A stretch of DNA of 64,000 nt from Candidatus Poribacteria bacterium (GTDB lineage Bacteria; Poribacteria; WGA-4E; WGA-3G): positions 1 through 64,000 of the forward strand of contig CBDBFU010000018.1 in the NCBI GenBank assembly GCA_965205025.1, given 5' to 3'. The position numbers and the translations under genes were made by a program. The notes beneath the pieces were generated by a model. That model was not told the origin of the DNA and searched no databases. It worked only from the letters and a program-made list of their open reading frames with translations. Positions within the stretch are counted from its first letter, which is position 1, and the number at the start of each line of letters is the position of its first letter. Shown one piece after another: positions 7,896 to 52,240 of the stretch.

Positions 7896-7943
7896 TTAAT
7901 ATTTCCTATGTAACAGGGTTGTAGATTATATAAACAGATATGG

Positions 7944-10721: not shown

Positions 10722-10873
10722 TAAGTCATTCCCCGGGACTCAAGATAGTGGATAAACGCGTTTTCTATAGACATAGCACTCCGCTGGAGTGCGAGAATGT
10801 ACCGATCATGTTTCTATAGACATAGCACTCCGCTGGAGTGCGGGAATACCCGGATCATGTTTCTATAGACATA

Positions 10874-11214: not shown

Positions 11215-11258
11215 TAGACATAGCACTCCACTGGAGTGCGAGAATGTACCGAATTCAG

Positions 11259-22413: not shown

Positions 22414-22700
22414 CGAAAATCCCTGCTGTAATTGTGTCTGTAAAGAGTTGCTACTTTTTACAAAATTGGCATAATAAGTCAATTATAATATAATTATAAA
22501 TATTGTATATATTAATTAAATATTGTCGTAATATTGGTTTAAAAGAATCGTTTTTTCAGTTTCCATTGACAAAAGACTCAGAAGTTACTCTGTACATCTT
22601 TGTTATGAACGACACATCGGTGCGGACATTGGCACTTGGACAAGCGATCCTCTCAAATGTCATACACGGATTCAACGTTGATTTAAAGTTAAGAAAAAGG

Positions 22701-22750
22701 ATCGGGCTTTCCTCCCCTGCCTAAAAGCAAGGGTCTCCAGCCCGAAGAAG
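22701..22750 (+). mobile_element. Orphan IS200/IS605-type (TnpB/IscB element) terminal hairpin
   Basis: CGGGCTTTCCTCCCCTGCCTAAAAGCAAGGGTCTCCAGCCCG resembles the TTCCTCCCC...CTAAAG...GGGGTYTCC end motif of that family; no transposase nearby. Confidence 0.45.
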
Positions 22751-32920: not shown

Positions 32921-33061
32921 ATATTTCTCATAAATTAAATAGTTGTGCTATCGTTGATTTAATTATAGCAGTTTAGCAAATGTAAGACAATAAAAGAGTG
33001 AAACCAGGTATTGCGCTCGTGACAGGAAATGCCCTGAAAACTAAAGTAATGTCTCCATTAG

Positions 33062-33607
33062 TTTTTCGGTATTATACAACCAGACCTACAATATTATTTT
33101 CGAAATCTCGGTGTTTCCAGTTTTGATAGTGCGTCCTACTTGAGAAAAGCGTGGGCAAGTCAAGATAGAAATTATTTATCAATAGATGGAGAAACATGGT
33201 ATGGGAGTTTCCGAGTTCCTTATAGTAATTCAAAAGCAATGCTTGATGCTGAAAAATCTCAATCGGAGATTTCCAATGGTGATTTAAAAAAAATGGAAAA
33301 AGAATGCCTATCAAGTCTCCAAAATTTTGATGCTGAAAATAAAATAGAAGATAGTGAAATTCAGGAAGTGCTCGCCAAAATTAATGAATATAGCAAAATT
33401 CTTCATGGGGCAAAAGCAAATGGTCACTATTCTAAAAAACATTTGAACTTACTTGAAGACCGTCCTTGGAAAAAATGTAAGTGTAAAGTTTGCCAAGATG
33501 CAGGTATTGATATTGTAATCTTTAGAGGGGCAAAGCGTAACAGACGTAGAGGATTTCATAATACTTGGGTATTTTACCATAAGATACTGCAAAGATTAAA
33601 AAAGTAG
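33062..33607 (+). pseudogene. dpdA: 5'-truncated DpdA/TGT-like transglycosylase (7-deazaguanine DNA modification) fragment
   Basis: In-frame GVSSFDSASYLRKAW and RPWKKCKCKVC...IVIFRGAKRNRRRGFHN; in-frame TAG at 33059-33061; N-terminal part missing. Confidence 0.65.
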
Positions 33608-33747
33608 TTTAAAAATGTGGGCAATGTTTTGCGATGAATATCAGGCATTCTTGTGTTTGGAAACCAATAATTCTCCTATACATTATTTTCAACAAATACC
33701 GCAACCTTACAGGGTTATGCCAATATTAAGAATTAAGGACTCTTTGA

Positions 33748-33880
33748 TGTAGCATAAACTTCCAGTTTGTGCAGTATCTTCTGTAGCATAAACTTCCAGT
33801 TTGTGCAGTATCTTCTGTAGCATAAACTTCCAGTTTGTGCAGTATCTTCTGTAGCACAAACTTTCCAGTTTGTGCAGTAT
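33748..33880. repeat. Tandem repeat, 4 x 34 bp of a GTAG-REP unit
   Basis: TGTAGCATAAACTTCCAGTTTGTGCAGTATCTTC starts at 33748, 33782, 33816 and 33850 (last copy variant); no spacers. Confidence 0.9.
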
Positions 33881-34925
33881 TTAATGACCTGCATAACAAC
33901 AATTCATGGTATAGACAATTATAAAATCAAATAGAAAACATCCCTCCTCTTCTATCCTTCCATTACCCAAAATAAATGAAAAAATATTGAAGAAAACCAA
34001 ACTATAAAACAACTAAAGACATAAATAAATATTAAACTTGACTATATATTTTTATTATGTTACCATATATATTACAGAAAAAGCATAGCATAAAATGTAG
34101 TCATGAAATTTTTACAACAGTTGTAAAAACGAAATCGAAATCTCATACTCCTACAAACCTATACCAGAACAGGCTTTAGAGCAATTCAAAACATGAACAG
34201 AGTATGAATTCTTAAAAAAATAACATTTTTTTGGAATTTCTAACAAACTCTTTCTGGGACTGACTTGAGAGCACTTTAAAACATAGATGTTTAAAAATTG
34301 TGTTGTAAAATAAAACTATGGTGTATCTCATAAATATAAATCGTTATTCACATCTAAAGAAAGAAGATAGAACAATAAAGAGGAAGATGAAAAATGACAA
34401 TCCAACATTTTCATAAAAATACAATCAGACATAGAAAAAATAGCGAATGGCTTCAGGGGTCAGGAAATTCAGAAAAACCAGAAAATGACACAAAACTCAA
34501 AATTCTTAAATTTCAAGAAAATAATCATAAACCCAATCCACCACAGGGATTAGAGCAATATTACAAAGTTACACTCTGTAACGAAAAGTGTAACTTTTTC
34601 ATTTTACTCTCTTTCGTTTTACTAAAGAGTATCACATTAATACAGTTCCTCTTCGTAGGGACGGGATTTCCCAGTCCGTATTTTCGATATATTATACATG
34701 GCAAGAACAATGAAGCCTCCAAATATATGATTTATGGGATATGTTCTAATATCTTGTCAAAATGGACGGTTAAAATATTTCACATTCATACGGTCCCAAA
34801 TCAATGGATGAGAAGAAAAGTAAAAGACACAAAATTCAACCCCACTTTATAATTGGGACAAATTTTTGTAACCTTAAAAAAGTGGCTATAAACACTGTGT
34901 GGTACTGACAGGAGAGAGGTTTTAC

Positions 34926-34959
34926 CAATGTCACACCATGTGACAAAAAGTGTAACTTT
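34926..34959 (+). repeat. 34-bp TGTCACA/TGTGACA/TGTAAC motif, copy 2 (variant at ~34565-34597)
   Basis: Inverted copy of 9877-9910. Confidence 0.75.
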
Positions 34960-35121
34960 ATTAAACATATTTATAATATAAATATCACAAATGTGAATAA
35001 TGAAAACGGAGTAAATTTACACAAGAATTACCCTGGTTCAATATAATATATAACAAAAAATAACTCTATGATTTCATGATATTCAGGCAAAAACTTTACA
35101 CACCCCTCTACCGATTTTGTG

Positions 35122-35150
35122 TTGACAAGAATAAGTAAATTTGTTACACT
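35122..35150 (+). promoter_or_regulatory. Putative sigma70 promoter of the transporter operon
   Basis: TTGACA-17bp-TACACT with an extended -10 TG. Confidence 0.55.
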
Positions 35151-35165
35151 TAGAAAAGCGAAATC

Positions 35166-38100
35166 ATGCATTTGAGGAATTATATGAGGATCCAGAGATA
35201 TATAGTTGTACTTTTACTGGTATTATGGAGTAATATTTCTCTTAGTTATGCTGCAGAAGGTAAAAAGACATTAGGTTTATCGGAAGCTGCAATACAGATC
35301 CGAGATGAACTCTCCATCCGAAACATTCGTAAAGACCTTGCCCGATTATCCAGCCTTCAAAGCCGAGTTACCGGCTACCCACAGGCAGCAAATGGTAGTA
35401 AATATATATTTGATCGCTTCGTTGAAATGGGATTACAGAACGTTGAAAGTCGTGAATTCTCTGTAACCGTTCCAATTGATCATGGTAATAGCGGTATTGA
35501 CGTTATTTCCACTGATGGTTCTATATTACATTCCTTCCCTCTAAGACCTTTATGGCCTAATCTGGTCAGAACATCTTTACTTACAGATGGGATCAAACAT
35601 ACAGTTGAAGTCGGTGAAACCCTTCAAGAGATAGCAGATAACTATGCTGTACCATTAACTGAAATCCAACAAAATACACATAATCAACACCTTCCAACAC
35701 CCGTTGTTGAAGGGAATGTTGTTTTTATTCCAACAGGTGGACTCACCGGTCAATTAATCTATGCCGGTAATTCTCAACTGTCAGATTTTAATGGCAGAAA
35801 TGTAGGTGGCTTTTGGTATCCCTTACAAGATGGAGATACACTCGTTTCATTAGCAAGACGTTACCGTGTCACCCAAGCCAGCATAACTGATGATGTGCTT
35901 AACGGACATCTTCAGAAAGCTTCTGATGGAATTGATAATGATGAAGATGGAATAGTTGATGAATACGGTGAAATTCCGTTGCTCTCAGAAATACTTGGAT
36001 GGGCGACAGACGGTATTGACAATAACGCTGATGGATGGACTGATGAAGTTCCTGGGGATGACACAGATGGCATTGATAACAATAGAGATGGTCAAATTGA
36101 TGAAGCCGATGAATTTGTTGCTGCAAGTGAGTCTCATATCTTTATACCGAAAGGGGCTATTATCCTCGCTGATTTTAACTCCGGTACACGCTGGATTAAT
36201 GCTGCAATGCTCGGTGCATCTGCCGTCATTTTTATTGAACCAGAAACAACTATACGTGGTGAAGCAGAAAACAAATTCCTTACTGTTCCAGCAAATATAC
36301 CCCGATTTTGGATTTCAAAACAGGATGCAACTGAAATAAGAAATCTCCTGGACACAGAAGCACAAGTAAACGTTCAACTACATGGGAAGATGACTTGGGA
36401 ACGCCGTGTTGGACAGAATATACGAGGATTCTTGGAAGGTGCGGATCCTGTATTACGGGATGAATTAGTCGTATTAACTGCGTATTATGACTCTATGTCT
36501 GTAGTGCCGGCACTTTCTCCTGGGGCTGATCCTACGTGTGGAATTGCAGTGTTAATGGAGATTGCTCGGTTATTTAGTCTACCGCAATACCGTCCTGGAC
36601 GATCCGTCCTATTCGTTGCCGTTGATGCACACTTCCAAGGCTTAGCAGGAATGCGTGCATTCATGGAGGGTATTGGTCAAGATATCGTCGGAACCACAAC
36701 CGATTCTCCAGGAACACCAACCTTACACGGGTTGAGACGAGGATTATCTAACGATATTATTGAGTTCGAAGAATTAGGTCGTAAACTACTTCTCTCAATT
36801 GATCGCAGCATTTTAGTTGACCTTGACGCAACTTTCTATCACGGTTTACACGGTATACGTGAAGACCTCGAATCGCTTGAGATTACTCTTGAAGGACTTT
36901 CTACCACCCGTTCTCAAATTGATTCTCTACATACAGCACAACGGGATTTTTCTGAACGTCAAAAAAAGCAGGCTGACCGTAGCAGAAAACGCGAAAAACA
37001 AGGATTTACAGAAGAAGAGAAATCAAGACTTAATGCTAACCTCGTTCGTTTTGAGAAAGAAGCACTTCAAACTACACACTTCCTAAGAGACATTGTTAGT
37101 AGACTCGGTCAAATTAGAACATTGGCATTGGATACAAGTAGAGATGCACAACGTGATCTGATTGAGAGTATTGCATTACCAATTGCAAGATTAGATACTT
37201 GGGCGATTGATAAGTTGAATAGAGAACTTGAAACAGATGAAATTGGTGACTCGTATGGCACACATCCTAATACTTCCTACCTTCTACCAGTTAAGTCTGG
37301 ATCGGATTACAATGTACCAACACCAGATGATCTCCCATCAGAATTGGTCGCAGATATCGAAATGCTCAATAAGACATTGGCTAATTGGGAAATGAGCGAC
37401 CAGAGAAAGTTCGCATTGATGTGGACTCCGGATAAAATTCTGGACCGACATTTGGATTTACCCTCCCTAAAAGATGCACGAAAGGCACGTAAAGTTCTTG
37501 CCAACACTGACGAACCTATGGAAGAGGCAATATCAAGAGAACGAGTATTGCTACAAAAAATCAGAGACAACCTTAAAGACAGCAATGCTATTGAGCAACA
37601 AATAAAAACTGCTATCACGAAATTGCGTGATGATCAAGAATACAATCTCCCAAACGAAATCCAAAACCAATATCTAACAGACACATCAAAAGATCGAATC
37701 GAAACAGTTAATGCTCAACTACGCCAACGTCTAACTGAAGCAGAAGCAGCTACCGAAACAGAAGGTTTTGATGATTCGTCGACTACTATCCTAATTGAGG
37801 ATTTAACTCGGGACAAGCAAGGTATTTTTGAGATTGCTCTACGGAATGTTCGTTTGGAGGAATCCCGAATTCTGAATCTCATTGATTCCCATGAAACTCT
37901 TACACGAGAATACCTGGATGAAGAATTAATCATACTAAATGGGTACTTAACTAAAGATGAAGTTGAGCAGGTGAAAGAAGCTCGAAAACACATCGCGGCT
38001 TATTTAGTTGAGGCACAAATTCTTGAATCTGTTAAAAACACCGCTGCAGCAGACGTTATTTCCCTTGAAAACCTAATCATTCAACTGCCATCTATAACAC

Positions 38101-41100
38101 GAGATTTAGATGCGCAGACTAAAGTTCTGCTCCGTGATAATATGCTCACTCTGAGAAATGCTCGATTCCGAAATATACAGAGTAGGGTTGAGAAAATGTC
38201 GCGTATAAGTGATATAGAATACAATCACAAACTCGAACAAATTGAAGCTGCTGTAGCATTGCAAGATCTATTCAACCGATACTATACATCTCTATTCTGT
38301 AGTATTGACCTTTCCTCTCAATCCAGTCAGTTTGGCGTCTTTAATAAAGGGTGGTTCTATGACCAGCAGCCTGAGTTTGTATTACGTAGGGAGTTTGCGA
38401 GTATTGGGAATAAACTTGCCGCTTATGCTGCTGATGCAGACTTTGGTGTACGAGTCAGAAAATTGTGGCAAGCCACAGATGACCAAATACGACAAGCTGT
38501 GATGGAACGGCAATGGTCGGTAGCCAGTCAAATCTCTGATAAGGAAGCGCTTGAAGGGAAGACACTTGAAACTCTCCTAAGCGCACATTATGGTAAGCTA
38601 ACGGGTTTAGGTGGTGTCAGTCGTCTGATGAAGATGCAATTTGAGCAGTGGAGAAACCGTGGTGAACCCTCGGAAGACATGCTCAAGGATATGGACTACA
38701 TTCGAAAAGAGGTTGAACGGTTCATCCGTAACGATGTTCGAAGTGCAAAGAAAAACCGTAAGAATAGTATCCGAATGCGTGAACAGTTAGATGCTATGCT
38801 AAGACTACGCCACGAAGACCCAGATACTTTTACAGAGGATGAGATTGAGGATATAAAAACATTAATCTCTATTGTTGGACTCGGTGGTGATACAAACTTC
38901 GTAAATGCTATATCCGCAAGTGGTGGAAAGACATGGAAAACATACATCCCCGGTAAAATCGCATTTGATAGTGAAGTTGCCACACTCGTTGGTAAAACAG
39001 GAATAGCATTTGCAACTATTGAAGATGCTCGCGTTCTCACCGATACACCACTTGATACAATTGATCGTGTGGATCTCCGTGAAGATGGAAATTTACACCA
39101 ACAGGCACAAACATTAGCATCTCTACTGATACAAGCGTTGCGTGACCCACAGATGCCTACCGCAGCACGCGTTGGAAACTTCTATTGTAACCTATTCGGG
39201 GACGTAGTTGAATTTGATGCACGTGAATCCGCTCTTCCCAACAAACCTGTCCCATATCCCATCCTTACGCTCCGACGTAAACACAAATCAATGATGGGGG
39301 TTCGTGGTGATCTATTTGTTATGGGTGATAACAAGGGGAATTTTGCAGTCGCCGGATTAGCCATGGAAGGTAGAGCAACCCGTCGACTTGGTGGTGTACA
39401 GGAAGTTGAAGCTTATATTCTTGATCCCGATTCTGGAGATATTGTCTATGCTCCCGATCTTGGAAATTACGGTGCCAAACTTCTTCCAAATAAGGTATCA
39501 ATCAACACACGCCGACGCGGATGTCGTGTTGTCACATTCCAATGTGTTTCTACGACTATCTACGATTTAGTTGACCAGCGTTACCTACGGACATTACGGG
39601 AATTAGAGGTATATGATGCGTTGTCGGATAGTCCACCAGAAAAATTTGGTGTATCTAAACCGTGGCAACAAGAAGGTGTTTCAGCTGCTGAACCGATTGC
39701 ACTTGTATATAGTGAACCGGAAACTCGTATTAAGATCGGTATGGCATACGGACAAATCGGAAAACGGCTACTCCTTATTAAAGCAACAAAAAGTGGTATG
39801 AAAAACCCTACACTTTATACTGGGGAAGGGTTCGTAGTAAGAGAAAACGGAAGTATTCGATTAACCCCTTATGTCGTTGTACGTGATATGTGGTGGCTTG
39901 ATGAAAACAGGTCACGACTCTATAAAAGGTTTGGTATTTCAAGTGACCGTCTCGACAAATTACATCAATTTGCAAATGAATATCTGACCCGCGCTGAAAC
40001 TGCACTATTCCAAAACGATTACCAACAGGCTCTTAAGTTAGCACGAGCAGCATGGGGATACGAATCTCGTGCTTATCCAGATGTAAAAAGGACAGGTAAT
40101 GATGTTGTAAATGGTATCATGTTCTATCTTGCCTTGCTGATGCCGTTCGCCTATTTTATGGAACGTCTGATATTTGGTTTCCCAAACATTAATAAACAGA
40201 TTTTAGGCACATTTGGTATTTTCCTTGTTGTCTTTTACTTCCTCAGTCAGGTCCATCCTGCATTCCAGATTACAACAACACCAATTATCATTCTCATTGC
40301 CTTTGTTGTTCTTGCCTTGACAGTGATTGTAATTAGTATTATCGTAAGAAAATTCGAGGAACAACTTGAGAAAATACGCCAGCAGGGTAACAAAGTATAC
40401 AAAGCCGACGTGGGTAGATTGAGTGCAAGTGCCGCTGCATTTAGCCTCGGTATTTCTAATATGCGGAAACGAAAAGGACGTACCATTCTCACCTGTGCCA
40501 CATTGGTTATACTTACATTTACTGTTATATCATTTACATCTGTGCGGACATTTATGCATCCAAACCGTACAAGTCTGCCACAGGTTACACCCCGTTACAC
40601 CGGATTACTCATCCGAGACCAATATTGGCGTCCACTTGAAGAACCCGTTCTAAACTCAATTCTCAATGATATGCAGAAAACACAAATTACTGTTGATGAT
40701 TTAGAACGTCTTCTCAGACAGAAAAACCAACTTCTGGTGAAACAAGGGCAAACGGAAATAGATATACCTGCAGCCATTGCACAATTAGAACAGAATGGAT
40801 TTATTGTTAATGTTGATGAAGAACCCATTCTCGCAGTTAAGAATGTTGTAGCACCGCGTTCTTGGTATCAATCTTCAGGAACAGGTGATCAGTCCTTTGT
40901 ACAACTAACGCGTAGCGCAAATTCAGAAGATACATCACCACCAACACATCCACTTACGGGTGAAGATTTACGTTTTGCTGCTAATATGCTTGTCGGTATG
41001 AGTGAAGCGGAACCTTCAGTTACAGGTATTGATCGTTATCTCCAATATGGAAAATGGTTCGATCGTGAAGATGCTGCAAATTGGCCGACAGATTGGCCCT

Positions 41101-42467
41101 ATGCAATTGTGTTACCAAAAGGTATGGCAGACTTATTAAAAATCACTGAAAGCGACATGGGTAAAGCAACTATCTCTGTTTATGGTGCTGACTTCACTGT
41201 TGTAGGTGTATTAGGGATCGGATTCAAGGATTTAACCGATAATGACGGTGAGGAACTCACACCTGTAGATTACCAGTTAATGCAACAGCAGCAGAGCCGC
41301 GGTGGAACAGGTGATGAAACGCTTGAAGGTGAACTTCAGAAATATCTCCATCTCACACCAGATAGCATCGCTATTTTGCCTTATGAAGTTGTAATGAACC
41401 AAGGTGGTACACTTAGAAGTGTTGCTGTCAACATGGAACCTCAAGAGGATGATCCCACACTATTAGGCGCAATTGATAAACTTGATCTCATCATGGCACC
41501 ATTAATGAACCGTATCGCACTTGATTTCTTTGTGGGTCGTGACAAAGATACCTACCTATACAGCAGTATCGGTATGACAAGTTTCAGTGGTATGGGGAAC
41601 CTATTCGTCCCGATTTTGATAGCTGCCTTGATTGTGTTGAATACGATGCTCGGGGCAGTTTATGAACGAGTACGGGAAATTGGAATCTATAGTTCTGTTG
41701 GACTTGCTCCTATCCATATTGCCTTCCTATTCCTCGCTGAAGCATGTGTATATGCCATTGTCGGTGCAGTATTAGGATATCTCATGGGACAGGTCATCGC
41801 TACGACATTAGTACATTTTGGATGGCTTGCAGGATTGACACTCAACTACTCTTCAATGTCTACGGTTGTGGCTACAGTAATTGTCATGATCGTTGTGCTG
41901 CTTAGCACACTATATCCTGCAATAAAAGCCTCTCGTATGGCGGTACCAGATATTGAACGGAAATGGAAGCTACCTGAACCTGAAGGTGATGTGTGGCATT
42001 TCAATTTACCTTTCACTGTCTTAGCCGAAGAAGCCTTAGGGTTAAATGTATTCATGCGTGATTACTTTGATGCACACGCTGATGAATCTGCAAGTGATTT
42101 CTACACTGATAATGTCGCCTTTAGAACTGTTGAGGAAGAGGATTCATTCCAAATTGGTATGATGGTTTGGTTAGCACCTTACGATTTAGGTGTGAGCCAA
42201 TCAATCCAGTTCATTACATCTCCAGTCGGTGGAGAAGAAGAAGATCTCTATAAGATTACATTAGAGGTAAATCGAGAGAGCGGTGAAATAGCCTCTTGGA
42301 AACGTGTTAATCGACGATTTCTTAATCTGTTACGTAAACAGTTGCTTATTTGGCGTACATTTAGTGTTGATATCCGGGCGGAATTCCATGAACGTGGTAG
42401 AACAGAAAGTGACGATATACCTGAAGAATCTCCACAATTGGAGCCAGTACCAACTACAGCAGATTAG
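35166..42467 (+). CDS. Giant M28-peptidase-like/PA/LysM/coiled-coil protein fused to an FtsX/MacB-type ABC permease
   Basis: Signal peptide; SRVTGY; two LysM; three DGIDN repeats; VVLTAYYDS...GAD; DTPLDT; TM bundle; SNMRKRKGRT; LNTMLGAVYERVREIGI. Confidence 0.8.
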   Translation: MHLRNYMRIQRYIVVLLLVLWSNISLSYAAEGKKTLGLSEAAIQIRDELSIRNIRKDLARLSSLQSRVTGYPQAANGSKYIFDRFVEMGLQNVESREFSVTVPIDHGNSGIDVISTDGSILHSFPLRPLWPNLVRTSLLTDGIKHTVEVGETLQEIADNYAVPLTEIQQNTHNQHLPTPVVEGNVVFIPTGGLTGQLIYAGNSQLSDFNGRNVGGFWYPLQDGDTLVSLARRYRVTQASITDDVLNGHLQKASDGIDNDEDGIVDEYGEIPLLSEILGWATDGIDNNADGWTDEVPGDDTDGIDNNRDGQIDEADEFVAASESHIFIPKGAIILADFNSGTRWINAAMLGASAVIFIEPETTIRGEAENKFLTVPANIPRFWISKQDATEIRNLLDTEAQVNVQLHGKMTWERRVGQNIRGFLEGADPVLRDELVVLTAYYDSMSVVPALSPGADPTCGIAVLMEIARLFSLPQYRPGRSVLFVAVDAHFQGLAGMRAFMEGIGQDIVGTTTDSPGTPTLHGLRRGLSNDIIEFEELGRKLLLSIDRSILVDLDATFYHGLHGIREDLESLEITLEGLSTTRSQIDSLHTAQRDFSERQKKQADRSRKREKQGFTEEEKSRLNANLVRFEKEALQTTHFLRDIVSRLGQIRTLALDTSRDAQRDLIESIALPIARLDTWAIDKLNRELETDEIGDSYGTHPNTSYLLPVKSGSDYNVPTPDDLPSELVADIEMLNKTLANWEMSDQRKFALMWTPDKILDRHLDLPSLKDARKARKVLANTDEPMEEAISRERVLLQKIRDNLKDSNAIEQQIKTAITKLRDDQEYNLPNEIQNQYLTDTSKDRIETVNAQLRQRLTEAEAATETEGFDDSSTTILIEDLTRDKQGIFEIALRNVRLEESRILNLIDSHETLTREYLDEELIILNGYLTKDEVEQVKEARKHIAAYLVEAQILESVKNTAAADVISLENLIIQLPSITRDLDAQTKVLLRDNMLTLRNARFRNIQSRVEKMSRISDIEYNHKLEQIEAAVALQDLFNRYYTSLFCSIDLSSQSSQFGVFNKGWFYDQQPEFVLRREFASIGNKLAAYAADADFGVRVRKLWQATDDQIRQAVMERQWSVASQISDKEALEGKTLETLLSAHYGKLTGLGGVSRLMKMQFEQWRNRGEPSEDMLKDMDYIRKEVERFIRNDVRSAKKNRKNSIRMREQLDAMLRLRHEDPDTFTEDEIEDIKTLISIVGLGGDTNFVNAISASGGKTWKTYIPGKIAFDSEVATLVGKTGIAFATIEDARVLTDTPLDTIDRVDLREDGNLHQQAQTLASLLIQALRDPQMPTAARVGNFYCNLFGDVVEFDARESALPNKPVPYPILTLRRKHKSMMGVRGDLFVMGDNKGNFAVAGLAMEGRATRRLGGVQEVEAYILDPDSGDIVYAPDLGNYGAKLLPNKVSINTRRRGCRVVTFQCVSTTIYDLVDQRYLRTLRELEVYDALSDSPPEKFGVSKPWQQEGVSAAEPIALVYSEPETRIKIGMAYGQIGKRLLLIKATKSGMKNPTLYTGEGFVVRENGSIRLTPYVVVRDMWWLDENRSRLYKRFGISSDRLDKLHQFANEYLTRAETALFQNDYQQALKLARAAWGYESRAYPDVKRTGNDVVNGIMFYLALLMPFAYFMERLIFGFPNINKQILGTFGIFLVVFYFLSQVHPAFQITTTPIIILIAFVVLALTVIVISIIVRKFEEQLEKIRQQGNKVYKADVGRLSASAAAFSLGISNMRKRKGRTILTCATLVILTFTVISFTSVRTFMHPNRTSLPQVTPRYTGLLIRDQYWRPLEEPVLNSILNDMQKTQITVDDLERLLRQKNQLLVKQGQTEIDIPAAIAQLEQNGFIVNVDEEPILAVKNVVAPRSWYQSSGTGDQSFVQLTRSANSEDTSPPTHPLTGEDLRFAANMLVGMSEAEPSVTGIDRYLQYGKWFDREDAANWPTDWPYAIVLPKGMADLLKITESDMGKATISVYGADFTVVGVLGIGFKDLTDNDGEELTPVDYQLMQQQQSRGGTGDETLEGELQKYLHLTPDSIAILPYEVVMNQGGTLRSVAVNMEPQEDDPTLLGAIDKLDLIMAPLMNRIALDFFVGRDKDTYLYSSIGMTSFSGMGNLFVPILIAALIVLNTMLGAVYERVREIGIYSSVGLAPIHIAFLFLAEACVYAIVGAVLGYLMGQVIATTLVHFGWLAGLTLNYSSMSTVVATVIVMIVVLLSTLYPAIKASRMAVPDIERKWKLPEPEGDVWHFNLPFTVLAEEALGLNVFMRDYFDAHADESASDFYTDNVAFRTVEEEDSFQIGMMVWLAPYDLGVSQSIQFITSPVGGEEEDLYKITLEVNRESGEIASWKRVNRRFLNLLRKQLLIWRTFSVDIRAEFHERGRTESDDIPEESPQLEPVPTTAD

Positions 42468-42500
42468 ACTTAATAGTATCTAATAGAATAGGAACGATAT

Positions 42501-42686
42501 ATGGAAAAATTAGCAGGTTTAATTATTTTTATCGGAACTGGACTATGGTTGGTCAGCATCCTTTTTTTAGGCGGACGTTGGCAGTGGCAGATGTTGGCAG
42601 CACTAATATTGACTATCGGAATTTTTCTTGCTCATTTTTGGGAAGAACTCAGCGAAGAAAAGAAAGACACACCGAAAGATGATTGA
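42501..42686 (+). CDS. Small 2-TM membrane protein
   Basis: AGGA SD; two hydrophobic helices and an acidic tail; lies within the operon. Confidence 0.7.
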   Translation: MEKLAGLIIFIGTGLWLVSILFLGGRWQWQMLAALILTIGIFLAHFWEELSEEKKDTPKDD

Positions 42687-42795
42687 ATGGTTCTCGGTTC
42701 TCGGTGTCTTTTGTGGGGTTGAATACTCTCCGCAATTGGAAATAACTATGACCAACTACCGAGGACTTATTGCCAATACAAAGGAGAAGTTTTAA

Positions 42796-44784
42796 TTGGC
42801 GCGAGAGAGAGTCTCACAAGCAGATGAATGGCAATCGTGGGCACAGCGGTACGACATAGAGGGTGGTATACGAACCTTTGAATCAGGGTTAACTGTCAAA
42901 GTGTTCTTTGGTGCTTTATTTGTCGGATTGCTGATGATGCCTGGATCCATTTATCTCAGTTATGTATCTGGTCAATCCGGTGCAGCCGCTGCTCCATGGG
43001 TTGCTGTTATTCTTTTCACTGAATTAGCCAGACGATCCTTTACCACTGCACGTCGACAAGAACTATACATGCTCCTAAGTCTAACTGGGGCAGCTGTCGG
43101 TAGTGGTATGCAATATCGGAATTTTATCTGGTATGCATATTTTATTAACACCCCTCAAGCCATTTCATACGAGATTGCAGACAAGATACCCGCATGGGTT
43201 GTTCCCGCGGGAGATTCTGTCGGGGTAATGACGCGCAGCTTGCTACATCCTGATTGGTTATTACCTATAGGAGTTTTCCTTGTTAGTAAATTGCTTGGAA
43301 CGTTGCGTTTCGTTAGTGGTCAGTATATTCTCTTTAGACTAACTGCTGATCTTGAACGTTTGCCTTACCCGATGGCACCTATTAGTGCTCAAGGAGCTAC
43401 AGCATTAGCTGAAACAACCGGTAAACAAGAGACTTGGCGATGGCAGGTGTTTTCTATCGGATCGATGGCAGGGTTAATCTGGGGTTTCATTTATATCGGT
43501 ATACCCGCACTCACCGGTGTAATGATGAGTGAACCGATCCAGATTCTGAAGATTCCGTGGATAGACTTTACGCAAAGTATTGAAGGATTCGCACCGACAG
43601 GTGTTTTTGCACTACGGACTGATTTCGGACAGATGTTAATCGGTTTCGTTATGCCGTTCCCAGTGGTGATGTCGGAGTTTGTCACTGCATTAATATCACA
43701 ATTCTTTATCAACCCTCAGATCCTATACAAGAACGGAATATTATGGCAATGGCATGCAGGACTTGATGTCCGGGGAGTAGGTCTATTTAACAACCTTGAC
43801 TTCTGGATGAGTTACGGCATGGGAAAAACGTTTAGTCTCGGTCTTGTTGGCATGGCAGCATCTATTCCGATGCTTTTCAAACTTCGCAGTACCAAGAAAA
43901 AGGCGGGTGAACGCGGTTCACTTGCCACACCACCAAACCGTGGCGATTTTCCATTATGGCTTATGGGAATACTATGGCTGATCGGTATGGGTGGATTTGT
44001 CTGGCTTATCCATTGGATGGTACCGAATTTCCCACTGAGTTTCCTACTTGGGTTCGCGTTCTTATATACGCCAATAAATTCGTATATCACCGCAAGGACT
44101 TTCGGGGTGCTCGGGCGTGATCTATTTGAAATACCTTATTTGCATCAGATTACCTTTATTCTCAGTCGTTACGAGGAGATTGATATCTGGTTTGCACCAC
44201 TACCTGACGAAGATTACGGTGCAGGCACACAAGGGTGGCGTGTGCTTGAACTGACGGGAACAACCTTTACATCAAACCTTGCTGCAACATTGCTAATAAT
44301 GCCAATCCTGCTTGTTAGCGGGATCGTCGTACTACACTTTATCTGGCAAATAGCACCAATACCGAGCGCACAATATCCATTTGTTCAGATGATGTGGCCA
44401 ATTAACGCAACAAACGAATGTCTTATGATAACATCACTGCGCGATGGGAATAGTGAGATAATACAAGCCATTCGAGGTGATTATGTTGCTGCTGGTTTCA
44501 CCTCCAGCCTTGCCATTTACGGCTTACTCTGGGTCTTTAAATACCCTTCAATGTGGTTCTACGGAATAGTTGGTGGTATTGGTGCTGATCCCGGTAGCAT
44601 GGTGGCTCGATTACTCGGTGCTATTATCGGTAGATTCTACATGATTAAACGGTTTGGATTGAAACGGTGGTATATGTTTAACCCCGTTTTGGCTGCGGGA
44701 TTTGCATGTGGTGTCGGTTTGATAGGGATGGGGACTGTTGCAGTTGCTCTTGTCTCGAAAGCAGTTATTGTTAAACCGTTTTAG
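42796..44784 (+). CDS. OPT/YSL-like oligopeptide transporter family membrane protein
   Basis: AAGGAG SD with TTG start; LERLPYPMAP motif; >12 TM segments. Confidence 0.7.
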   Translation: MARERVSQADEWQSWAQRYDIEGGIRTFESGLTVKVFFGALFVGLLMMPGSIYLSYVSGQSGAAAAPWVAVILFTELARRSFTTARRQELYMLLSLTGAAVGSGMQYRNFIWYAYFINTPQAISYEIADKIPAWVVPAGDSVGVMTRSLLHPDWLLPIGVFLVSKLLGTLRFVSGQYILFRLTADLERLPYPMAPISAQGATALAETTGKQETWRWQVFSIGSMAGLIWGFIYIGIPALTGVMMSEPIQILKIPWIDFTQSIEGFAPTGVFALRTDFGQMLIGFVMPFPVVMSEFVTALISQFFINPQILYKNGILWQWHAGLDVRGVGLFNNLDFWMSYGMGKTFSLGLVGMAASIPMLFKLRSTKKKAGERGSLATPPNRGDFPLWLMGILWLIGMGGFVWLIHWMVPNFPLSFLLGFAFLYTPINSYITARTFGVLGRDLFEIPYLHQITFILSRYEEIDIWFAPLPDEDYGAGTQGWRVLELTGTTFTSNLAATLLIMPILLVSGIVVLHFIWQIAPIPSAQYPFVQMMWPINATNECLMITSLRDGNSEIIQAIRGDYVAAGFTSSLAIYGLLWVFKYPSMWFYGIVGGIGADPGSMVARLLGAIIGRFYMIKRFGLKRWYMFNPVLAAGFACGVGLIGMGTVAVALVSKAVIVKPF

Positions 44785-44801
44785 GTAGGAACATTTTGTA
44801 G

Positions 44802-45761
44802 TTGGATAGAGATATGGACTGGACTCTTTTCGGTTGGGCAGGGATTCAATTAGAGATTCCAACTGAGTGGGAAATTAGTGGTATTAGTGGAGATGAGAAA
44901 AATGGTTATATGCGAATGGATGACCAAGAAATGCCACGCTTGGAACTCAAATGGGCAAAAACACGGAAAAAGAAGCCAGATTTACACACAACGCTTGATG
45001 AATATTTCAAATTAGTCCGTAAAAACTACAAACGTGCTGGAAATGTGTCCTTCCGTAGAAATGTAACCCTTATCAAAGATGAGGATTTTTTAAAAGGGAG
45101 TAATTACCTCGGTTTCAGTTGGAAGGGGACTATCAGAGCAAATGGTTTGATTGTGCATACTCCCGGTACAAAACGGATTACCATTGTACAGGTGATGGGA
45201 CGTTTAAAAGAGAATTGGCGTCCGATTGTACATAGAATCTTCCAATCAATCTCTGATAAGGAAGATCCGAAACACAAGGTGTGGAGTGCATACGGACTTC
45301 GGCTTGCAGTCCCCGCAAACTACAAGTTAGAGAGTCAGAAATTGTTGAGTGGATATCTTCTGTTTGCATTTTCAAGAGGCAAATCACGAAAGATCAGTGT
45401 AGAACGTTATGGTCCTGCTGAAGTATTATTAAACGAATATAATTCGGACGATAATCAATTAGAAACATGGTTTCGAGCACGATATGCAAAAGCAATCCGT
45501 GGTTACGGTTTTGAGGTGAACTCTTATGAGGAACAGGGAGACGAACGTATAACGTTTGTTGGACAACAGACACGTTTCTATGACAGTGTTCCGCTTTCAC
45601 CGGTGCTTATTCTGGATAGAATAAAAAAGCGAACACGTCTTGTATTTTACACGTGGCGTTGTCATCATACGAATCGAATCTATGTAGTTCAATCCATTGG
45701 TCGTAGTGATGTATCGGAAAAACTTGGTAAAGAAGTAGCAGATAGTATACACTGTCATTAA
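44802..45761 (+). CDS. Conserved hypothetical soluble protein (two-repeat DcrB/PsbP-like pattern)
   Basis: FGWAGIQLEIPTEW and WSAYGLRLAVPANY internal repeats; lies within the operon. Confidence 0.6.
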   Translation: MDRDMDWTLFGWAGIQLEIPTEWEISGISGDEKNGYMRMDDQEMPRLELKWAKTRKKKPDLHTTLDEYFKLVRKNYKRAGNVSFRRNVTLIKDEDFLKGSNYLGFSWKGTIRANGLIVHTPGTKRITIVQVMGRLKENWRPIVHRIFQSISDKEDPKHKVWSAYGLRLAVPANYKLESQKLLSGYLLFAFSRGKSRKISVERYGPAEVLLNEYNSDDNQLETWFRARYAKAIRGYGFEVNSYEEQGDERITFVGQQTRFYDSVPLSPVLILDRIKKRTRLVFYTWRCHHTNRIYVVQSIGRSDVSEKLGKEVADSIHCH

Positions 45762-45854
45762 TCCAGTTTGAATATTTATTCGTTTGCTATTATCCGAGAA
45801 TCTGGATAGTTTAACTATGATTATTTTGTCTTACCATATACATTCTTTGGAGTA

Positions 45855-46901
45855 ATGACAACACATCAAGAGATACTGAGTTTTTTTGATATCAAGATAG
45901 ACCATTTTTCTGACAAGAGTGCAAGATGGTTGTTCCAAGACAAGGAGAATGTTCGAGGTTTAATTGAAATTCTTGCTAATGAGTTATCTGAACGAATTGA
46001 TTTTAATCAACTCAAACAGATTAACAGGAGTTTTATTCCCAATACATTACGGGAGCAAGAGTCTGACATCGTATATAGTGTACCTATTAAGCATGAGTCT
46101 AAAACAGATGAGATTCTCATTTATATCCTTATTGAGCATCAATCAACAGTTGACATTACAATGGGATTTAGAGTACTATTCTATATGACTCAGATTTGGG
46201 ATTGGCAACGGCGAGACTATGAATCAGATAATACACCGAAGAGCAAATGGCGGTTTCGTCCTATTCTTCCAATTGTGTATTACACTGGCTCACGACAATG
46301 GAAAACACCATTAACACTTGACACTATTATGGATGTCCCTCAGGGGTTTGATCCATTTATTCCGAAATTTGATATCATATCTCTAAATATCAAAGACACC
46401 GAAGATGAAGTACTGACAAAAACCGGGCATCCACTCGGGTGGTTATTAACTGTACTGAAAAAGGAAGAGACATCAACTGAAACATTAGGCAACATATTGG
46501 TAGAAGCATTATCTAATATAAAATCTCTTAGTGATGAATACTCACACCAAAAACAGAGAGCAGTTATTTATTTTCTTCTGCTAATCTTGCATCGCCGACC
46601 TGCTGAGGATCATGAAAACTTAATATCGCTTATTAATAAATCAACACCTAACATGGAGGTGCAAACCATGGCTAAGTCAATGGCTGATGTTCTAAAAGAA
46701 CAGGGAATAGAACAGGGAGAAATACAAGCTAAACAACAAGCAGCTCTCAAACTGATAAACATCAAATTTGATGATGTTCCTAATGACGTTTCTAATAAGA
46801 TTACTTCCATAACTGACATTTTACGTCTTGATTTACTCTTTGAGAAAGCTGCTACTGCTCAAACGCTTGATGAGATTGATTTAACATTCTATGACGATTA
46901 A
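45855..46901 (+). CDS. Rpn/YhgA-family recombination-promoting nuclease (putative transposase)
   Basis: ESDIVY, YILIEHQS, PILPIVYYTG and EQGIEQG motifs. Confidence 0.88.
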   Translation: MTTHQEILSFFDIKIDHFSDKSARWLFQDKENVRGLIEILANELSERIDFNQLKQINRSFIPNTLREQESDIVYSVPIKHESKTDEILIYILIEHQSTVDITMGFRVLFYMTQIWDWQRRDYESDNTPKSKWRFRPILPIVYYTGSRQWKTPLTLDTIMDVPQGFDPFIPKFDIISLNIKDTEDEVLTKTGHPLGWLLTVLKKEETSTETLGNILVEALSNIKSLSDEYSHQKQRAVIYFLLLILHRRPAEDHENLISLINKSTPNMEVQTMAKSMADVLKEQGIEQGEIQAKQQAALKLINIKFDDVPNDVSNKITSITDILRLDLLFEKAATAQTLDEIDLTFYDD

Positions 46902-46940
46902 ATTCATAGTATTCTAAGTCTATACAAATATTATATTAAC

Positions 46941-47405
46941 ATGTTAAATAAGATATTATACGGTCTAAAAATAAAAAAGCGTCCTGATGTAGATAGAGGA
47001 AAAATCCTTGAGGCATTTCCGTTGCGGAATCAGCTCATCACATGGGAAATGGACGATAAAGGGGAAGCCTCACTTGTAATACCACAGAAGGATAAACTCA
47101 TGGTGCGTCTTACAAGTAAACTGTTTATGCTACCTGATAAACGTGTGGTAGTATTGGATAGTATAGGTGCATTCGTATGGGAGATGTGTGACGGTGAACA
47201 CACGATTTCTCAGATTATTAAGGCAATCCAAAAGAAACACCAGTTGACACGAAAAGAAGCCGAAACTTCATTGTTTACTTTTATTAAGCAACTTGGCAAA
47301 CGGAATTTTATCGGCTTTGCTATTCCTACAGAAGCCAAAACGAATGAAGAGGACACACAGAAACCTGCACAACAGAAACGTTTCGGTTTCTTATCAAAAG
47401 GGTAA
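46941..47405 (+). CDS. PqqD family (RiPP recognition element-like) protein
   Basis: LDSIGAFVWEMCDGEHTISQII...FIKQLGKRNFI. Confidence 0.82.
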   Translation: MLNKILYGLKIKKRPDVDRGKILEAFPLRNQLITWEMDDKGEASLVIPQKDKLMVRLTSKLFMLPDKRVVVLDSIGAFVWEMCDGEHTISQIIKAIQKKHQLTRKEAETSLFTFIKQLGKRNFIGFAIPTEAKTNEEDTQKPAQQKRFGFLSKG

Positions 47406-47428
47406 TGTGTCTATAAAGGAGAAGAGAT

Positions 47429-48235
47429 ATGCAAGCAGAAATGGGTAGCGTTCAACCAGATATTACGGAAACTCCCAGACGATTCAAACGTGAATTACCA
47501 AAAGAGAACACAGTCAGAGTTCGGAACCTTATAAAACGGTATGAAATGGGTACACAGTCTGTGGATGCTTTACGGGGTGTGAACTTCCAGATTCAACGCG
47601 GTGAATATATCTCTATCATGGGACCGTCCGGTTCAGGTAAATCCACACTTTTTAATATGATTGGCGGATTAGATAAACCAACTGAAGGACGCGTCTATAT
47701 TGATGAAGTAGACATTGCTCAACTTGATGCCTATGAATTAGCATGGCTTCGTTGCAGGAAAATAGGCTATATATTCCAATCGTTTAACCTTATCCCTGTT
47801 ATGACAGCACTTGAAAATGTATCGCTTCCAATGATCTTTGCTGGGATGAGTGCTGATGAAAGTAGAGATAATGCGGTAGACAAACTTTCACTCGTTGGTT
47901 TAGGCGATCGTATCCAGCATAAACCGTTAGAACTTTCAGGGGGTCAGCAACAACGTGTTGCAATTGCACGTTCCCTTGCCAATGATCCAGCAATAGTTCT
48001 CGCCGATGAACCAACTGGTAATCTGGATACAAAAACAGGTTTGGAAATCATCGCTTTACTTCGACGTCTGAATGATGAAAACGGTGTGACAATTATCACT
48101 GCAACACATGATCATAAGATGCTTGATGTATCCGACCGAATCTTCCATATGGCAGATGGAAAAGTTGATAAAATAGAATCTCGTGATGAAATCGACCTGC
48201 ACGTTGGAAGGTTAGACGGTCAAGAGGTCGGATAA
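47429..48235 (+). CDS. ABC transporter ATP-binding protein (LolD/MacB-type)
   Basis: GPSGSGKST, LSGGQQQR, LADEPTGNLD and ATHD motifs. Confidence 0.93.
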   Translation: MQAEMGSVQPDITETPRRFKRELPKENTVRVRNLIKRYEMGTQSVDALRGVNFQIQRGEYISIMGPSGSGKSTLFNMIGGLDKPTEGRVYIDEVDIAQLDAYELAWLRCRKIGYIFQSFNLIPVMTALENVSLPMIFAGMSADESRDNAVDKLSLVGLGDRIQHKPLELSGGQQQRVAIARSLANDPAIVLADEPTGNLDTKTGLEIIALLRRLNDENGVTIITATHDHKMLDVSDRIFHMADGKVDKIESRDEIDLHVGRLDGQEVG

Positions 48236-48243
48236 ACTTCGAT

Positions 48244-49364
48244 ATGTCGATATACAGACGATTAGGTATCCGGACAGTCATAAACGGCAATGCAACACTA
48301 ACTCGCCTTGGTGGATCCATCATGCCACCCGTAGTCGTTGATGCTATGGCTGAAGCCTCTAAACATTTTGTAGACATCATAGAACTCCAACAACGTGTCG
48401 GTGAAGAATTAGCAAGACTTACCCATAACGAAGCAGCCTACGTATCTTGTGGTGCTGCAGCAGCGTTAACACATCTCCACTGCAGGCCTGTATCACAGGT
48501 CTTGACGCTGGAAAACGTGAAAAACTTCCTCATCTTAATAGTTCAATGAAGAACGAAGTTATCGTGCATCGACACGGTAGAGTTGGTTATGATTATGCAG
48601 TGAGACAGGTTGGTGTTAATTTTATAGAGATTGGAGACGAAAACGGCACTCCACCTGACGAACTTGAAAATGCTATAACGGATAAAACTGCTGCAATCTT
48701 CTACTTCGCAAATCCAGGTAGAGAACATCTTTGGGTATCCTATCAGAAAGGGATTGAAATTGCTCAAAAGCACGGTGTTCCATTGATAGTTGATGCTGCA
48801 GCGCAGTTGCCTCCTCCTGAAAACCTTTGGCGATTTACTCAGATGGGGGCAGATTTAGCGATGTTTAGTGGTGGTAAAGGATTGTGTGGACCACAAAGTA
48901 GTGGTCTCATTGTCGGTAAGAAATCGCTCATTGATGCAATTGCATTCAATGGTCCTCCGAATCCTTATATTGGTAGAGGAATGAAGGTTGGCAAAGAAGA
49001 AATGGTCGGATTGCTGGCTGCAGTTGAGTGGTATTTGAAGCAAGACCCTGAAGAAGTCATGCAGTCTTATGAAGACCAAGTTACCTACTACCGTGAGTTA
49101 TTTAAGGATATACAAGGAATATCTGTACATAGAAGTTTTCCATCTGAAGCGGGACAACCAATGCCACGTACAGAAATCCGATTTGATGCAGAACAACTCG
49201 GTATTACACGTGATGAAATACTTCACCAACTCCATACAGGTGAGCCTTCGATAGATATTGCAGGAGCAGGTACAAACGGTGTTCTCATTAATGGACAGAC
49301 ACTGATGCCGGGTGAAGTAGAAATTATAGGGAATAGGATAAAGCAGATAGTAGTTAATTTATAA
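48244..49364 (+). CDS. SelA-like / DgaE-like PLP-dependent enzyme, frameshifted at ~48470-48490
   Basis: GIRTVINGNATLTRLGGS, VDAAAQ, FSGGKGL and IGRGMKVGKEE motifs; removing two extra bases restores LTLSTAACITG. Confidence 0.82.
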
Positions 49365-49427
49365 CGCACGGTCTCTTTGTCTTGTTGATACAGTATAACT
49401 AAAAAATCAATAATATAGGAACACATC

Positions 49428-50138
49428 ATGAAACTAAACAATGGTATACAACTTACATGGTTGGGACATGCAACCTACAAAATTGAAGTAGATGGTAACA
49501 CTCTTTTAATTGACCCTTGGGTAGACAGCAATCCTGTCTGTCCGGATGAACTAAAAACCTTTGATAAGCTTGATGCGGTAATATTAACACATGGACATGC
49601 GGATCATATAGCAGATGCTATCCCAATTGCGAAGAAATATACACCTACTGTCGTTGGTATCATTGAAATCGCAAAATGGCTTGAGAATAAAGGTGTTGAA
49701 AATACTATAGGATTTAATAAAGGTGGAACAGTAACAGTATGTGGTGTCAAGGTGACGATGGTCACTGCCAATCATAGTAGTAGTATCACGGAAGATGATG
49801 GCACTATTGCATACTTAGGTGAGGCAGCTGGTATTATACTTGAGTTTGCCAACGGATATAAAATCTACCATGCTGGAGATACGAATGTATTTGGTGATAT
49901 GAAGATTATCGGTGATATCTACCAACCAGACTTAGCACTGCTTCCTATTGGGGATCACTTTACTATGGGACCACGTGAAGCAGCTTATGCCACACAACTG
50001 CTAAATATACCAAGAGTTATCCCTATGCATTATGGTACATTTCCAGTTTTGACAGGAACAGTAGAAGAATTCCAAAAACTGACTGCTTCTCAAGATATAG
50101 AAATATATGAAATGCAGATTGGGGAGACCTTAGAGTAA
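49428..50138 (+). CDS. Metallo-beta-lactamase-fold hydrolase (UPF0173-like)
   Basis: TWLGHA, THGHADH, YHAGDT and IPMHYGTF motifs. Confidence 0.9.
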   Translation: MKLNNGIQLTWLGHATYKIEVDGNTLLIDPWVDSNPVCPDELKTFDKLDAVILTHGHADHIADAIPIAKKYTPTVVGIIEIAKWLENKGVENTIGFNKGGTVTVCGVKVTMVTANHSSSITEDDGTIAYLGEAAGIILEFANGYKIYHAGDTNVFGDMKIIGDIYQPDLALLPIGDHFTMGPREAAYATQLLNIPRVIPMHYGTFPVLTGTVEEFQKLTASQDIEIYEMQIGETLE

Positions 50139-50145
50139 ACTGTCT

Positions 50146-51997: not shown

Positions 51998-52240
51998 ATT
52001 CTCCTTTAGTCTTTACCCGATTGTGTTTACTTGCCGTAGACCTATCGGGATCATTTTATTCTCAACTACTCAAGAAATCTAAGCAACATTGAGTTTTGTT
52101 AGATTGTTGAGTATTCGTTTATATTTATATCTGCAGATTTTATCATATACCATTTTTACATATTTTTCAAGTAATTCATCTCCATTGCCAAGATAAATCA
52201 GTATTTATTATACCAAGATGTATAAATAGAAGATATCGCG

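Follow-up and report, generated by a model that had tools for sequence, protein, structure and literature searches.

A six-gene envelope operon conserved in Candidatus Poribacteria and encoding a giant M28-like/FtsX permease, its ABC ATPase and a membrane protein of predicted OPT fold

We analysed a 64,000-nucleotide (nt) stretch of DNA from a Candidatus Poribacteria bacterium (GenBank assembly GCA_965205025.1, contig CBDBFU010000018.1, positions 1 to 64,000; hereafter the window) and examined a six-gene envelope operon at 35166-48235 on the forward strand. Conservation of the full operon was seen in Candidatus Poribacteria, while its core also occurs in Armatimonadota. The listing of open reading frames (ORFs) showed seven long ORFs in this interval, six of which are operon members. 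They encode, in order, a giant protein of 2433 aa with a C-terminal FtsX-type permease unit, a 61-aa protein with two transmembrane segments (TMs), a 662-aa polytopic membrane protein, a 319-aa protein, a 154-aa PqqD-like protein and a 268-aa ATP-binding cassette (ABC) ATPase, with gaps of 17-110 nt separating the operon genes. An earlier interpretation of this DNA, made by a model from the letters and the ORF translations (the sequence-only reading), had listed these six ORFs as a co-directional run behind one promoter. All six are present on the + strand where that reading had placed them, but the run is broken by a 348-aa gene of the Rpn/YhgA type that it had not reported. The promoter was not borne out: a candidate site lies just 5' of the giant-protein gene, and because the promoter scan was at chance level (47 sites vs 46.9 in shuffled sequence), a single promoter for the operon is not established. 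An Rfam scan of 33000-50500 matched no family.

To survey relatives, the profile of the 662-aa protein was compared with genome contigs, which yielded 523 relatives; the best 80 matches represented 75 loci, 71 of them clustering with Poribacteria relatives and four lying outside (L072-L075). Gene presence at each locus was determined by tblastn with the window proteins, and the counts for the 71 Poribacteria loci are included in Table 1. The nearest relatives of the 662-aa and 2433-aa proteins came from metagenome-assembled genomes of Candidatus Poribacteria, with identities of up to 95-99%. The six genes were colinear on one strand in 64 of the 71 Poribacteria loci at 40-96% protein identity, which indicates that the six ORFs are real genes and not chance ORFs. 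Six of the seven incomplete loci end at a contig edge, and the seventh (L068) lacked a match for the 61-aa gene only. The giant-protein gene, hereafter the M28-FtsX gene, adjoined the 662-aa gene in 70/71 loci. The surroundings were less constant. Downstream DgaE-like and MBL genes were found at only 39-40 of the 71 loci, the window ORF at 34394-34852, 5' of the operon, had no counterpart at any locus examined, and in more distant Poribacteria the operon flanks differed and were often on the opposite strand. Because the flanking genes vary among lineages, the conserved unit comprises exactly the giant-protein gene through the ATPase gene. Members of these families carry public names such as “M28 family peptidase”, “LysM peptidoglycan-binding domain-containing protein”, “peptide transporter” and “hypothetical protein”.

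Table 1 Features of the operon and of the giant protein in the window, with the number of Poribacteria loci (of 71) giving a tblastn match.
Feature	Position	Strand	Description	Loci matched
Candidate promoter-like site	35122-35150	+	TTGACA, 17 nt, TACACT, with TG; just 5' of the giant-protein gene	
Giant protein	35166-42467	+	2433 aa; Pfam FtsX 46.9 bits, Peptidase_M28 32.8 bits, LysM 25.7 bits	70
N-terminal hydrophobic segment, residues 1-30	35166-35255	+	Hydropathy; segment 12-30 ends SYA|AE	
N-terminal extracytoplasmic domain, residues 31-213	35256-35804	+	Kept in Armatimonadia homologues (16-213 aligns to L074); first LysM-like half-motif near residue 145	
Poribacteria-specific insert, residues 214-328	35805-36149	+	Second LysM-like motif and three DGIDN..DG acidic repeats (254, 282, 301)	
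M28-like (PA/M28) domain, first half, residues 329-505	36150-36680	+	Non-canonical zinc/catalytic positions	
M28-splitting insert, residues 506-1240	36681-38885	+	Pro/Gly-poor, charge-rich; presumed helical/coiled coil from composition	
Rest of arm, residues 1241-1646	38886-40103	+	Presumed second M28-like half and further domain; conserved across phyla	
Three-TM bundle, residues 1647-1725	40104-40340	+	Hydropathy; no detectable FtsX similarity	
MacB/FtsX-type permease unit, residues 1773-2258	40482-41939	+	One TM, periplasmic domain 1792-2146 with weak MacB_PCD match, three TMs (PF02687)	
Cytoplasmic C-terminal domain, residues 2259-2433	41940-42464	+	Conserved across phyla to about residue 2411	
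61-aa two-TM protein	42501-42686	+	Two hydrophobic segments; motifs GGRWQxQ and AHFWEE	70
662-aa polytopic membrane protein, predicted OPT/YSL fold	42796-44784	+	AlphaFold model and Foldseek	71
319-aa protein, two predicted PsbP/Mog1-like domains	44802-45761	+	AlphaFold model; without hydrophobic segment	70
348-aa Rpn/YhgA-type gene	45855-46901	+	Transposase_31, E 2.7e-27; insertion, not part of the system	7
154-aa protein of PqqD/recognition-element type	46941-47405	+	PF05402, 44.4 bits	68
268-aa ABC ATPase, LolD/MacB/FtsE type	47429-48235	+	ABC_tran 124 bits; best NCBIfam model LolD	66

Of the loci outside Poribacteria, L072 and L074 belong to Armatimonadia and L075 to Candidatus Zipacnadia, a class of Armatimonadota. 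A core of ATPase, M28-FtsX and OPT-like (662-aa type) genes was present in three of the four outside loci, all from Armatimonadota, and in these the M28-FtsX and OPT-like genes were adjacent. Co-occurrence elsewhere, on which the sequence-only reading had staked its proposal, is thus found both within the phylum and beyond it. The gene order in L072 was PqqD (143 aa), a 204-aa FtsX protein, ATPase (254 aa), M28-FtsX (1486 aa) and OPT-like (681 aa); that in L074 was ATPase, an M28/MacB_PCD/FtsX protein (1683 aa) and OPT-like; and in L075 an FtsX protein clipped by the contig end was followed by the OPT-like gene. The window ATPase was 67-72% identical to the Armatimonadia copies. The giant proteins of the two phyla shared 40-45% identity over window residues 1237-2411, and further blocks aligned at residues 16-213 and 329-500. 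The 204-aa FtsX-domain protein of L072 (4030-4644), encoded between the PqqD and ATPase genes, is almost without a periplasmic loop and aligned to giant-protein residues 2150-2258 (32% identity, E 8e-14); it could be a hetero-partner there. A radical SAM protein with Radical_SAM_N2 and Radical_SAM domains is encoded 5' of the L074 cluster on the opposite strand (525-2141, -), and it is probably unrelated because it was seen in only one of the four outside loci.

The hydropathy layout of the giant protein began with a hydrophobic segment (residues 12-30), followed by about 1600 residues outside the membrane, TMs at 1647-1725, a short cytoplasmic linker and one TM at 1773-1791. The C-terminal part comprised a 355-residue loop, three or four TMs (2147-2249) and a 180-residue cytoplasmic tail. 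Residues 12-30 are probably a Sec signal peptide, or else a first TM, the cleavage site having been read by eye. The FtsX match (PF02687) covered residues 2148-2258 and exceeded its cut-off of 25.5 bits. In PDB sequence searches the permease unit matched MacB and LolC at E about 1e-8 and YtrF at E 6e-6, with a weaker match to LolF. The MacB_PCD model scored 21.4 bits on the 355-residue loop, under its cut-off of 27, and 27.1 bits, at the cut-off, on the L074 homologue. Scores against curated NCBIfam families were far under the cut-offs (LolC 32.5 vs 473, MacB 28.1 vs 966, ADOP 27.8 vs 622, FtsX_actino 21.9 vs 250), and since this held for MacB, LolC/E, FtsX and ADOP alike, the giant protein is assigned to the MacB/FtsX superfamily but to no named family. 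A duplicated FtsX permease was considered and rejected: hhalign of residues 1630-1735 against 2125-2262 gave 0.3% probability, and only the TM count and topology are repeat-like. The active form may be a homodimer. No family was found for the C-terminal cytoplasmic domain; its best protein-atlas score was 0.88, with low recognition and no usable lead.

The adjoining ATPase was the most conserved member of the operon, with a mean column identity of 87%. Its NCBIfam scores were highest for LolD (234.9), followed by DevA (217.5), YbbA (217.4), MacB (215.6) and FtsE (210.9), all below the equivalog cut-offs. With an FtsX bundle and a cognate LolD/MacB/FtsE-type ATPase both present, the ATPase and the giant protein constitute a type VII (MacB/FtsX-class) ABC system. 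Pfam, NCBIfam and PDB sequence matches thereby upheld three assignments proposed earlier, namely the FtsX/MacB-type permease, the LolD-like ATPase and the PqqD protein described below. The system resembles MacB-MacA-TolC, LolCDE, FtsEX-EnvC and YbbAP-TesA in its FtsX TM bundle, in the predicted periplasmic domain between TM1 and TM2 of the permease unit, in its separate LolD/FtsE-like ATPase and, by analogy, in the ATP-driven motion of its extracytoplasmic domains. It differs from them in that an M28-like arm of about 1600 residues and an extra three-TM bundle are fused ahead of the permease unit, in its cytoplasmic C-terminal domain, in the lack of a MacA-like adaptor gene, and in its partners, which are of OPT-fold, PqqD and PsbP-like type.

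The extracytoplasmic arm contained an M28-like (PA/M28) domain. The Peptidase_M28 match exceeded its cut-off of 21.3 bits over profile positions 1-78 of 193 only, whereas the match in the L072 homologue covered positions 10-184. In PDB sequence searches, residues 329-505 matched Vibrio aminopeptidase (E 6e-5), nicalin (E 9e-5), YwaD, GCPII and the transferrin receptor (E 0.29). The similarity of the arm to nicalin, the transferrin receptor and active M28 aminopeptidases extends over the first half of the fold. It departs from these M28/PA proteins in the long insert that splits the fold, in the fusion of the domain to an ABC permease and in the conserved Tyr, His and Phe/His substitutions. The zinc and catalytic residues of the Vibrio enzyme include His97, Asp117, Glu151 and Glu152; ligands later in the sequence did not align. 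At the position of His97 the M28-FtsX family has Tyr (AYYDS), at that of Asp117 an Asp or Glu is retained (PGAD/E), and at those of Glu151-Glu152 it has His-Phe or His-His (xH[F/H]). These motifs were found at the aligned M28 sites in 8/8 family members, including two Armatimonadia proteins, and we read the domain as probably non-catalytic because the substitutions are conserved and not random. The top-scoring chain, 2anp_A, also has His at the first Glu position; other aminopeptidase chains, including 1amp_A, scored lower. The M28-like domain is thus probably a non-canonical M28/PA module with a binding or adaptor role rather than an aminopeptidase, as in nicalin and the transferrin receptor. 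The sequence-only reading had the gene call right and had missed this domain and its altered active site.

The insert that splits the M28-like fold in the window protein (residues 506-1240, about 735 residues) contained 6% P+G and 28% E+K+R+Q. At the same site L074 has a much shorter helix-prone stretch, and in L072 the M28 match is continuous. From its composition, our guess is that the insert forms a coiled-coil hairpin. For residues 1241-1646, which follow it, no Pfam or PDB sequence match was found.

The 662-aa protein gave no Pfam or NCBIfam match, and neither its sequence nor its profile retrieved any PDB entry in sequence searches. An AlphaFold2 model was built from a 68-sequence alignment, with a mean predicted local distance difference test score (pLDDT) of 81.2 and a predicted TM-score (pTM) of 0.78. 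Foldseek comparison of this model with the PDB returned only 7wst_A (E 4.2e-10) and 7wsr_A (E 3.4e-9) at E <=0.001. Both chains are barley YS1 (Yellow stripe 1); their TM-scores were 0.55-0.62, and the next match had a TM-score of 0.10. The predicted structure thus has the OPT/YSL fold, in a protein that fails the OPT family sequence model. The OPT-like permease named in the sequence-only reading therefore stands at the level of the fold and is not matched by the Pfam OPT model. The overall fold is the same as that of YS1 in the 662-aa model over about 680 columns; the protein differs from YS1 in being only 15-16% identical and in being encoded inside an ABC operon. A precomputed PF03169 label was attached to 5 among the 120 relatives listed, and some members from Armatimonadota appear at NCBI under the name “peptide transporter”. 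In the lineage represented by L053-L060 the OPT-like gene is tandem-duplicated (at about 7200-12000; two 665-aa copies in L053). There the two-TM gene precedes the first copy only, the small ORF before the second copy is unrelated, and an extra 263-aa ORF without a family match lies 3' of the second copy.

The 319-aa protein likewise had no Pfam or NCBIfam match, and its PDB sequence search gave only hits with E above 0.2. Its AlphaFold model (31 sequences, pLDDT 87.6) had 21 PDB matches at E <=0.001, most of them to chains of PsbP, Tli4/TplEi or Apa; Mog1 narrowly missed this threshold. The E value was 3e-6 against PsbP and 6e-6 to 5e-5 against Tli4/TplEi, which are two-domain immunity proteins of the type VI secretion system. 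In the model, two PsbP/Mog1-like domains stand in tandem; the sequence-only reading had missed this fold. The PsbP/Mog1 fold mostly serves protein-protein contacts. PsbP and Tli4 act outside the cytoplasm, whereas the 319-aa protein, 8-14% identical to PsbP, Mog1 and Tli4 (TplEi), is placed in the cytoplasm by the absence of a signal or TM segment. The family also occurs in Armatimonadota and Planctomycetota, where its members are named “hypothetical protein”; the profile search returned 1306 cluster representatives at E <=0.001 and 181 at <=1e-30, nearly all of them stand-alone proteins of 290-350 aa.

The PqqD protein matched PF05402 over residues 63-124, above the cut-off of 23.4 bits, and was far under all curated PqqD-type NCBIfam cut-offs (35.5 vs 100 and similar). 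Its family shows a conserved basic N-terminus, an invariant TRKEAETSL-like stretch and an insert. Compared with PqqD and the recognition elements (RREs) of ribosomally made peptides that undergo post-translational modification (RiPPs), it has no partner maturase or precursor gene, and the basic N-terminus and insert are specific to the family. When the 319-aa protein and the ATPase were folded together with the PqqD protein as partner, using a separate alignment for each chain, the score was 0.20 against a mark of 0.32, a value that counts neither way on binding.

Every part of this operon is of a known kind, whereas neither their combination nor the way in which the permease is built has been characterised. 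The sequence-only reading had stated that it knew of no characterised equivalent, and in the titles and opening lines of abstracts we likewise found no literature description of the gene combination. Type VII ABC systems act by mechanotransmission rather than by passage of solutes through the permease. Summaries of published work on ABC units of the MacB, LolCDE and FtsEX class describe movement of extracytoplasmic domains in response to ATP hydrolysis (PMC5985334, PMC7668044, PMC12646458). Our preferred reading, to which we assign a probability of roughly 0.45, is that the operon encodes a type VII ABC mechanotransducer that is functionally linked to an OPT-fold transporter and acts on a peptide-like envelope ligand. 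We infer the functional ABC-OPT link, as well as what the ligand is and which way it is transported. The ABC unit would spend ATP on capturing, releasing or passing on a peptide-like ligand on the extracytoplasmic side, and the moving part would be the permease's own arm of about 1600 residues on its PA/M28-like scaffold, which in Poribacteria is lengthened by LysM-like motifs, by acidic repeats and by the helix-prone insert of about 735 residues. The OPT-fold protein would carry this ligand, or a product of it, across the cytoplasmic membrane, and the PqqD-like and PsbP-like proteins may either bind part of a peptide or exert regulation at the cytoplasmic face. In a more demanding version, the ABC and OPT parts would be physically coupled in a hybrid transporter without a characterised counterpart; its conduit through the membrane would be the OPT-fold protein, loaded or gated from outside by the pseudo-peptidase arm, with the PqqD-like and PsbP-like proteins receiving or gating cargo inside. 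We regard this version as unlikely.

Several observations weigh against a functional link between an ABC mechanotransducer and an OPT-fold transporter. No OPT-like fusion protein of 1160-3310 aa was found, although the lack of such fusions is weak evidence. PF03169 matched one of 18 aligned relatives only (E 5.8e-4) and did not match the window protein. In one of the four outside loci, L073, the OPT-like gene was solitary, and no ABC gene lay closer to it than 10 kb. The Armatimonadota loci L072, L074 and L075 gave no match for the 61-aa or the 319-aa gene, and the profile of the 319-aa protein had no match in L072-L075. The operon also tolerates insertions (the Rpn gene and those in the PqqD-ATPase spacer), and tight co-translation is therefore not required. 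Within the giant protein, the first three-TM bundle is not detectably FtsX-like, so that the permease could be a homodimer or a one-chain pseudo-dimer, and the label “inactive” for the M28-like domain leans on the residue numbering of the Vibrio aminopeptidase.

The same genes might serve in cell-wall remodelling, as a single-chain FtsEX-EnvC-like device whose ABC-driven helical arm and degenerate metallopeptidase-like domain would control a peptidoglycan hydrolase encoded elsewhere, with the OPT-fold protein importing the released peptides. FtsEX-EnvC is the model case of such logic in summaries of the published work (PMC7668044, PMC11491553), and the arm has features that would suit it, namely LysM-like motifs and a long helix-prone insert beside a peptidase-like domain with substituted catalytic positions. 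The LysM match of 25.7 bits applies to the whole protein, however, and the two half-motifs, at about 17 bits each, are below the Pfam cut-off singly; the LysM-like motifs lie in the Poribacteria-specific insert rather than in the shared core. No amidase or other peptidoglycan hydrolase gene was present in the operon, the degenerate domain is M28-like and not of the M23/LytM type, and the FtsX NCBIfam scores were far below cut-off (21.9 vs 250). We consider a cell-wall device doubtful.

Another explanation is that two independent transporters are merely neighbours, one being a MacB-type exporter or extractor with its accessories and the other a separate OPT-type importer. The solitary OPT-like gene of L073 would fit this explanation, as would the tandem duplication of the OPT-like gene alone in L053-L060, the tolerance of insertions within the operon and the failure to find fused forms. 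It does not readily accommodate the adjacency of the M28-FtsX and OPT-like genes in 70/71 Poribacteria loci and 3/4 outside loci, which has been kept despite identities of 40-45% and a reordering of the other members, nor the location of the OPT-like gene in Poribacteria between the permease and ATPase genes of one and the same ABC system. On this evidence an association of unrelated neighbours also seems unlikely.

The PqqD-like protein raises the question of peptide export, in which the operon would export a ribosomal peptide, or protect the cell against it, the precursor and maturases being encoded elsewhere and the PqqD protein being a leader-peptide receptor handing the peptide to the ABC unit. 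Its PqqD domain scored above the Pfam cut-off and gave scores against the lasso, ScmD and PqqD NCBIfam models, the ATPases of the DarD and lactococcin 972 MacB-type exporters were among the good matches of the window ATPase, and a radical SAM gene lies upstream in L074, on the opposite strand. Those NCBIfam scores were nevertheless all far below the cut-offs (35.5 vs 100 and similar). Among the window ORFs of at least 90 aa that were scanned, no radical SAM, YcaO or other maturase gene was found, in agreement with the sequence-only reading, and the operon is consequently not a RiPP biosynthetic cluster. Among the same ORFs and in the conserved unit, where gaps measure 17-110 nt, no plausible precursor gene was present, and since the flanks vary between species there is no conserved biosynthetic neighbour. 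Peptide export accordingly appears improbable. Least probable is a host-contact device of the sponge symbiont, in which an elongated arm with acidic calcium-binding-like repeats would reach the host matrix or cell surface, leaving the transporter parts a secondary role: the DGIDN..DG insert and the helix-prone segment of about 735 residues are Poribacteria-specific and the window is rich in eukaryote-like leucine-rich-repeat proteins, but the core occurs without these inserts in Armatimonadota from other sources, so host contact would be at most a lineage-specific addition.

Outputs of type VII ABC systems are known from few partners, which are efflux ducts, lipoprotein release and activators of cell-wall hydrolases. 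If the link between the ABC mechanotransducer and the OPT-fold transporter is correct, a pseudo-peptidase arm with an OPT-fold genetic partner would be a new output of the type VII mechanism, and bacterial OPT-like proteins, which are almost unstudied, would gain a functional context. The structure models also assign folds to two families of “hypothetical protein” that reach beyond Poribacteria, and the PqqD/RRE domain is conserved here outside any RiPP cluster. Armatimonadota is a phylum with cultured members, and because the core occurs in it, the question of what the operon does may be open to experiment.

The Rpn/YhgA-type gene that interrupts the operon belongs to an NCBIfam Rpn family. 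In the close relative L004, which is without the gene, 37 bp stand in the place of window positions 45769-46890, and L001 and L003 retain the last 200-250 nt of the gene. Because L004 lacks it and L001 and L003 keep a 3' remnant, we regard it as a nested insertion of the mobile-element type that lies outside the system. Six of the 64 complete loci (L005, L007, L031, L038, L041, L047) also had insertions of about 1.5-5 kb that set the PqqD gene apart from the ATPase gene, and the operon spacers appear to be insertion hot spots.

Directly downstream of the operon, at 48244-49364, a gene for a DgaE-family pyridoxal phosphate (PLP) enzyme is split into overlapping ORFs (48244-48549 and 48447-49364) in different frames; the corresponding gene in L008 is a single 373-aa ORF, and the split in the window is a frameshift or a sequencing error. 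The region 5' of the operon resembles a variable island. Its G+C content drops to 0.31-0.35 at 26-30 kb, and it contains, at 30014-33607, an Eco57I-type restriction-modification gene (968 aa) and a 155-aa ORF that matches just the last 145 or so positions of DpdA and is a fragment. Farther away lies a Type ISP restriction-modification enzyme (1022 aa, 11259-14327). Eukaryote-like repeat proteins are typical of sponge symbionts, and four leucine-rich-repeat proteins are encoded at 173-2216 and 20095-25387, one with an M12-like metallopeptidase head and one with Big_12 and FlgD-Ig domains. On the other side of the operon, three Laminin_G_3 (concanavalin-like) paralogues occur among sugar-acid metabolism genes (51161-53089 and 56610-57140, -), and a DDE_3 transposase is encoded at 60413-61603.

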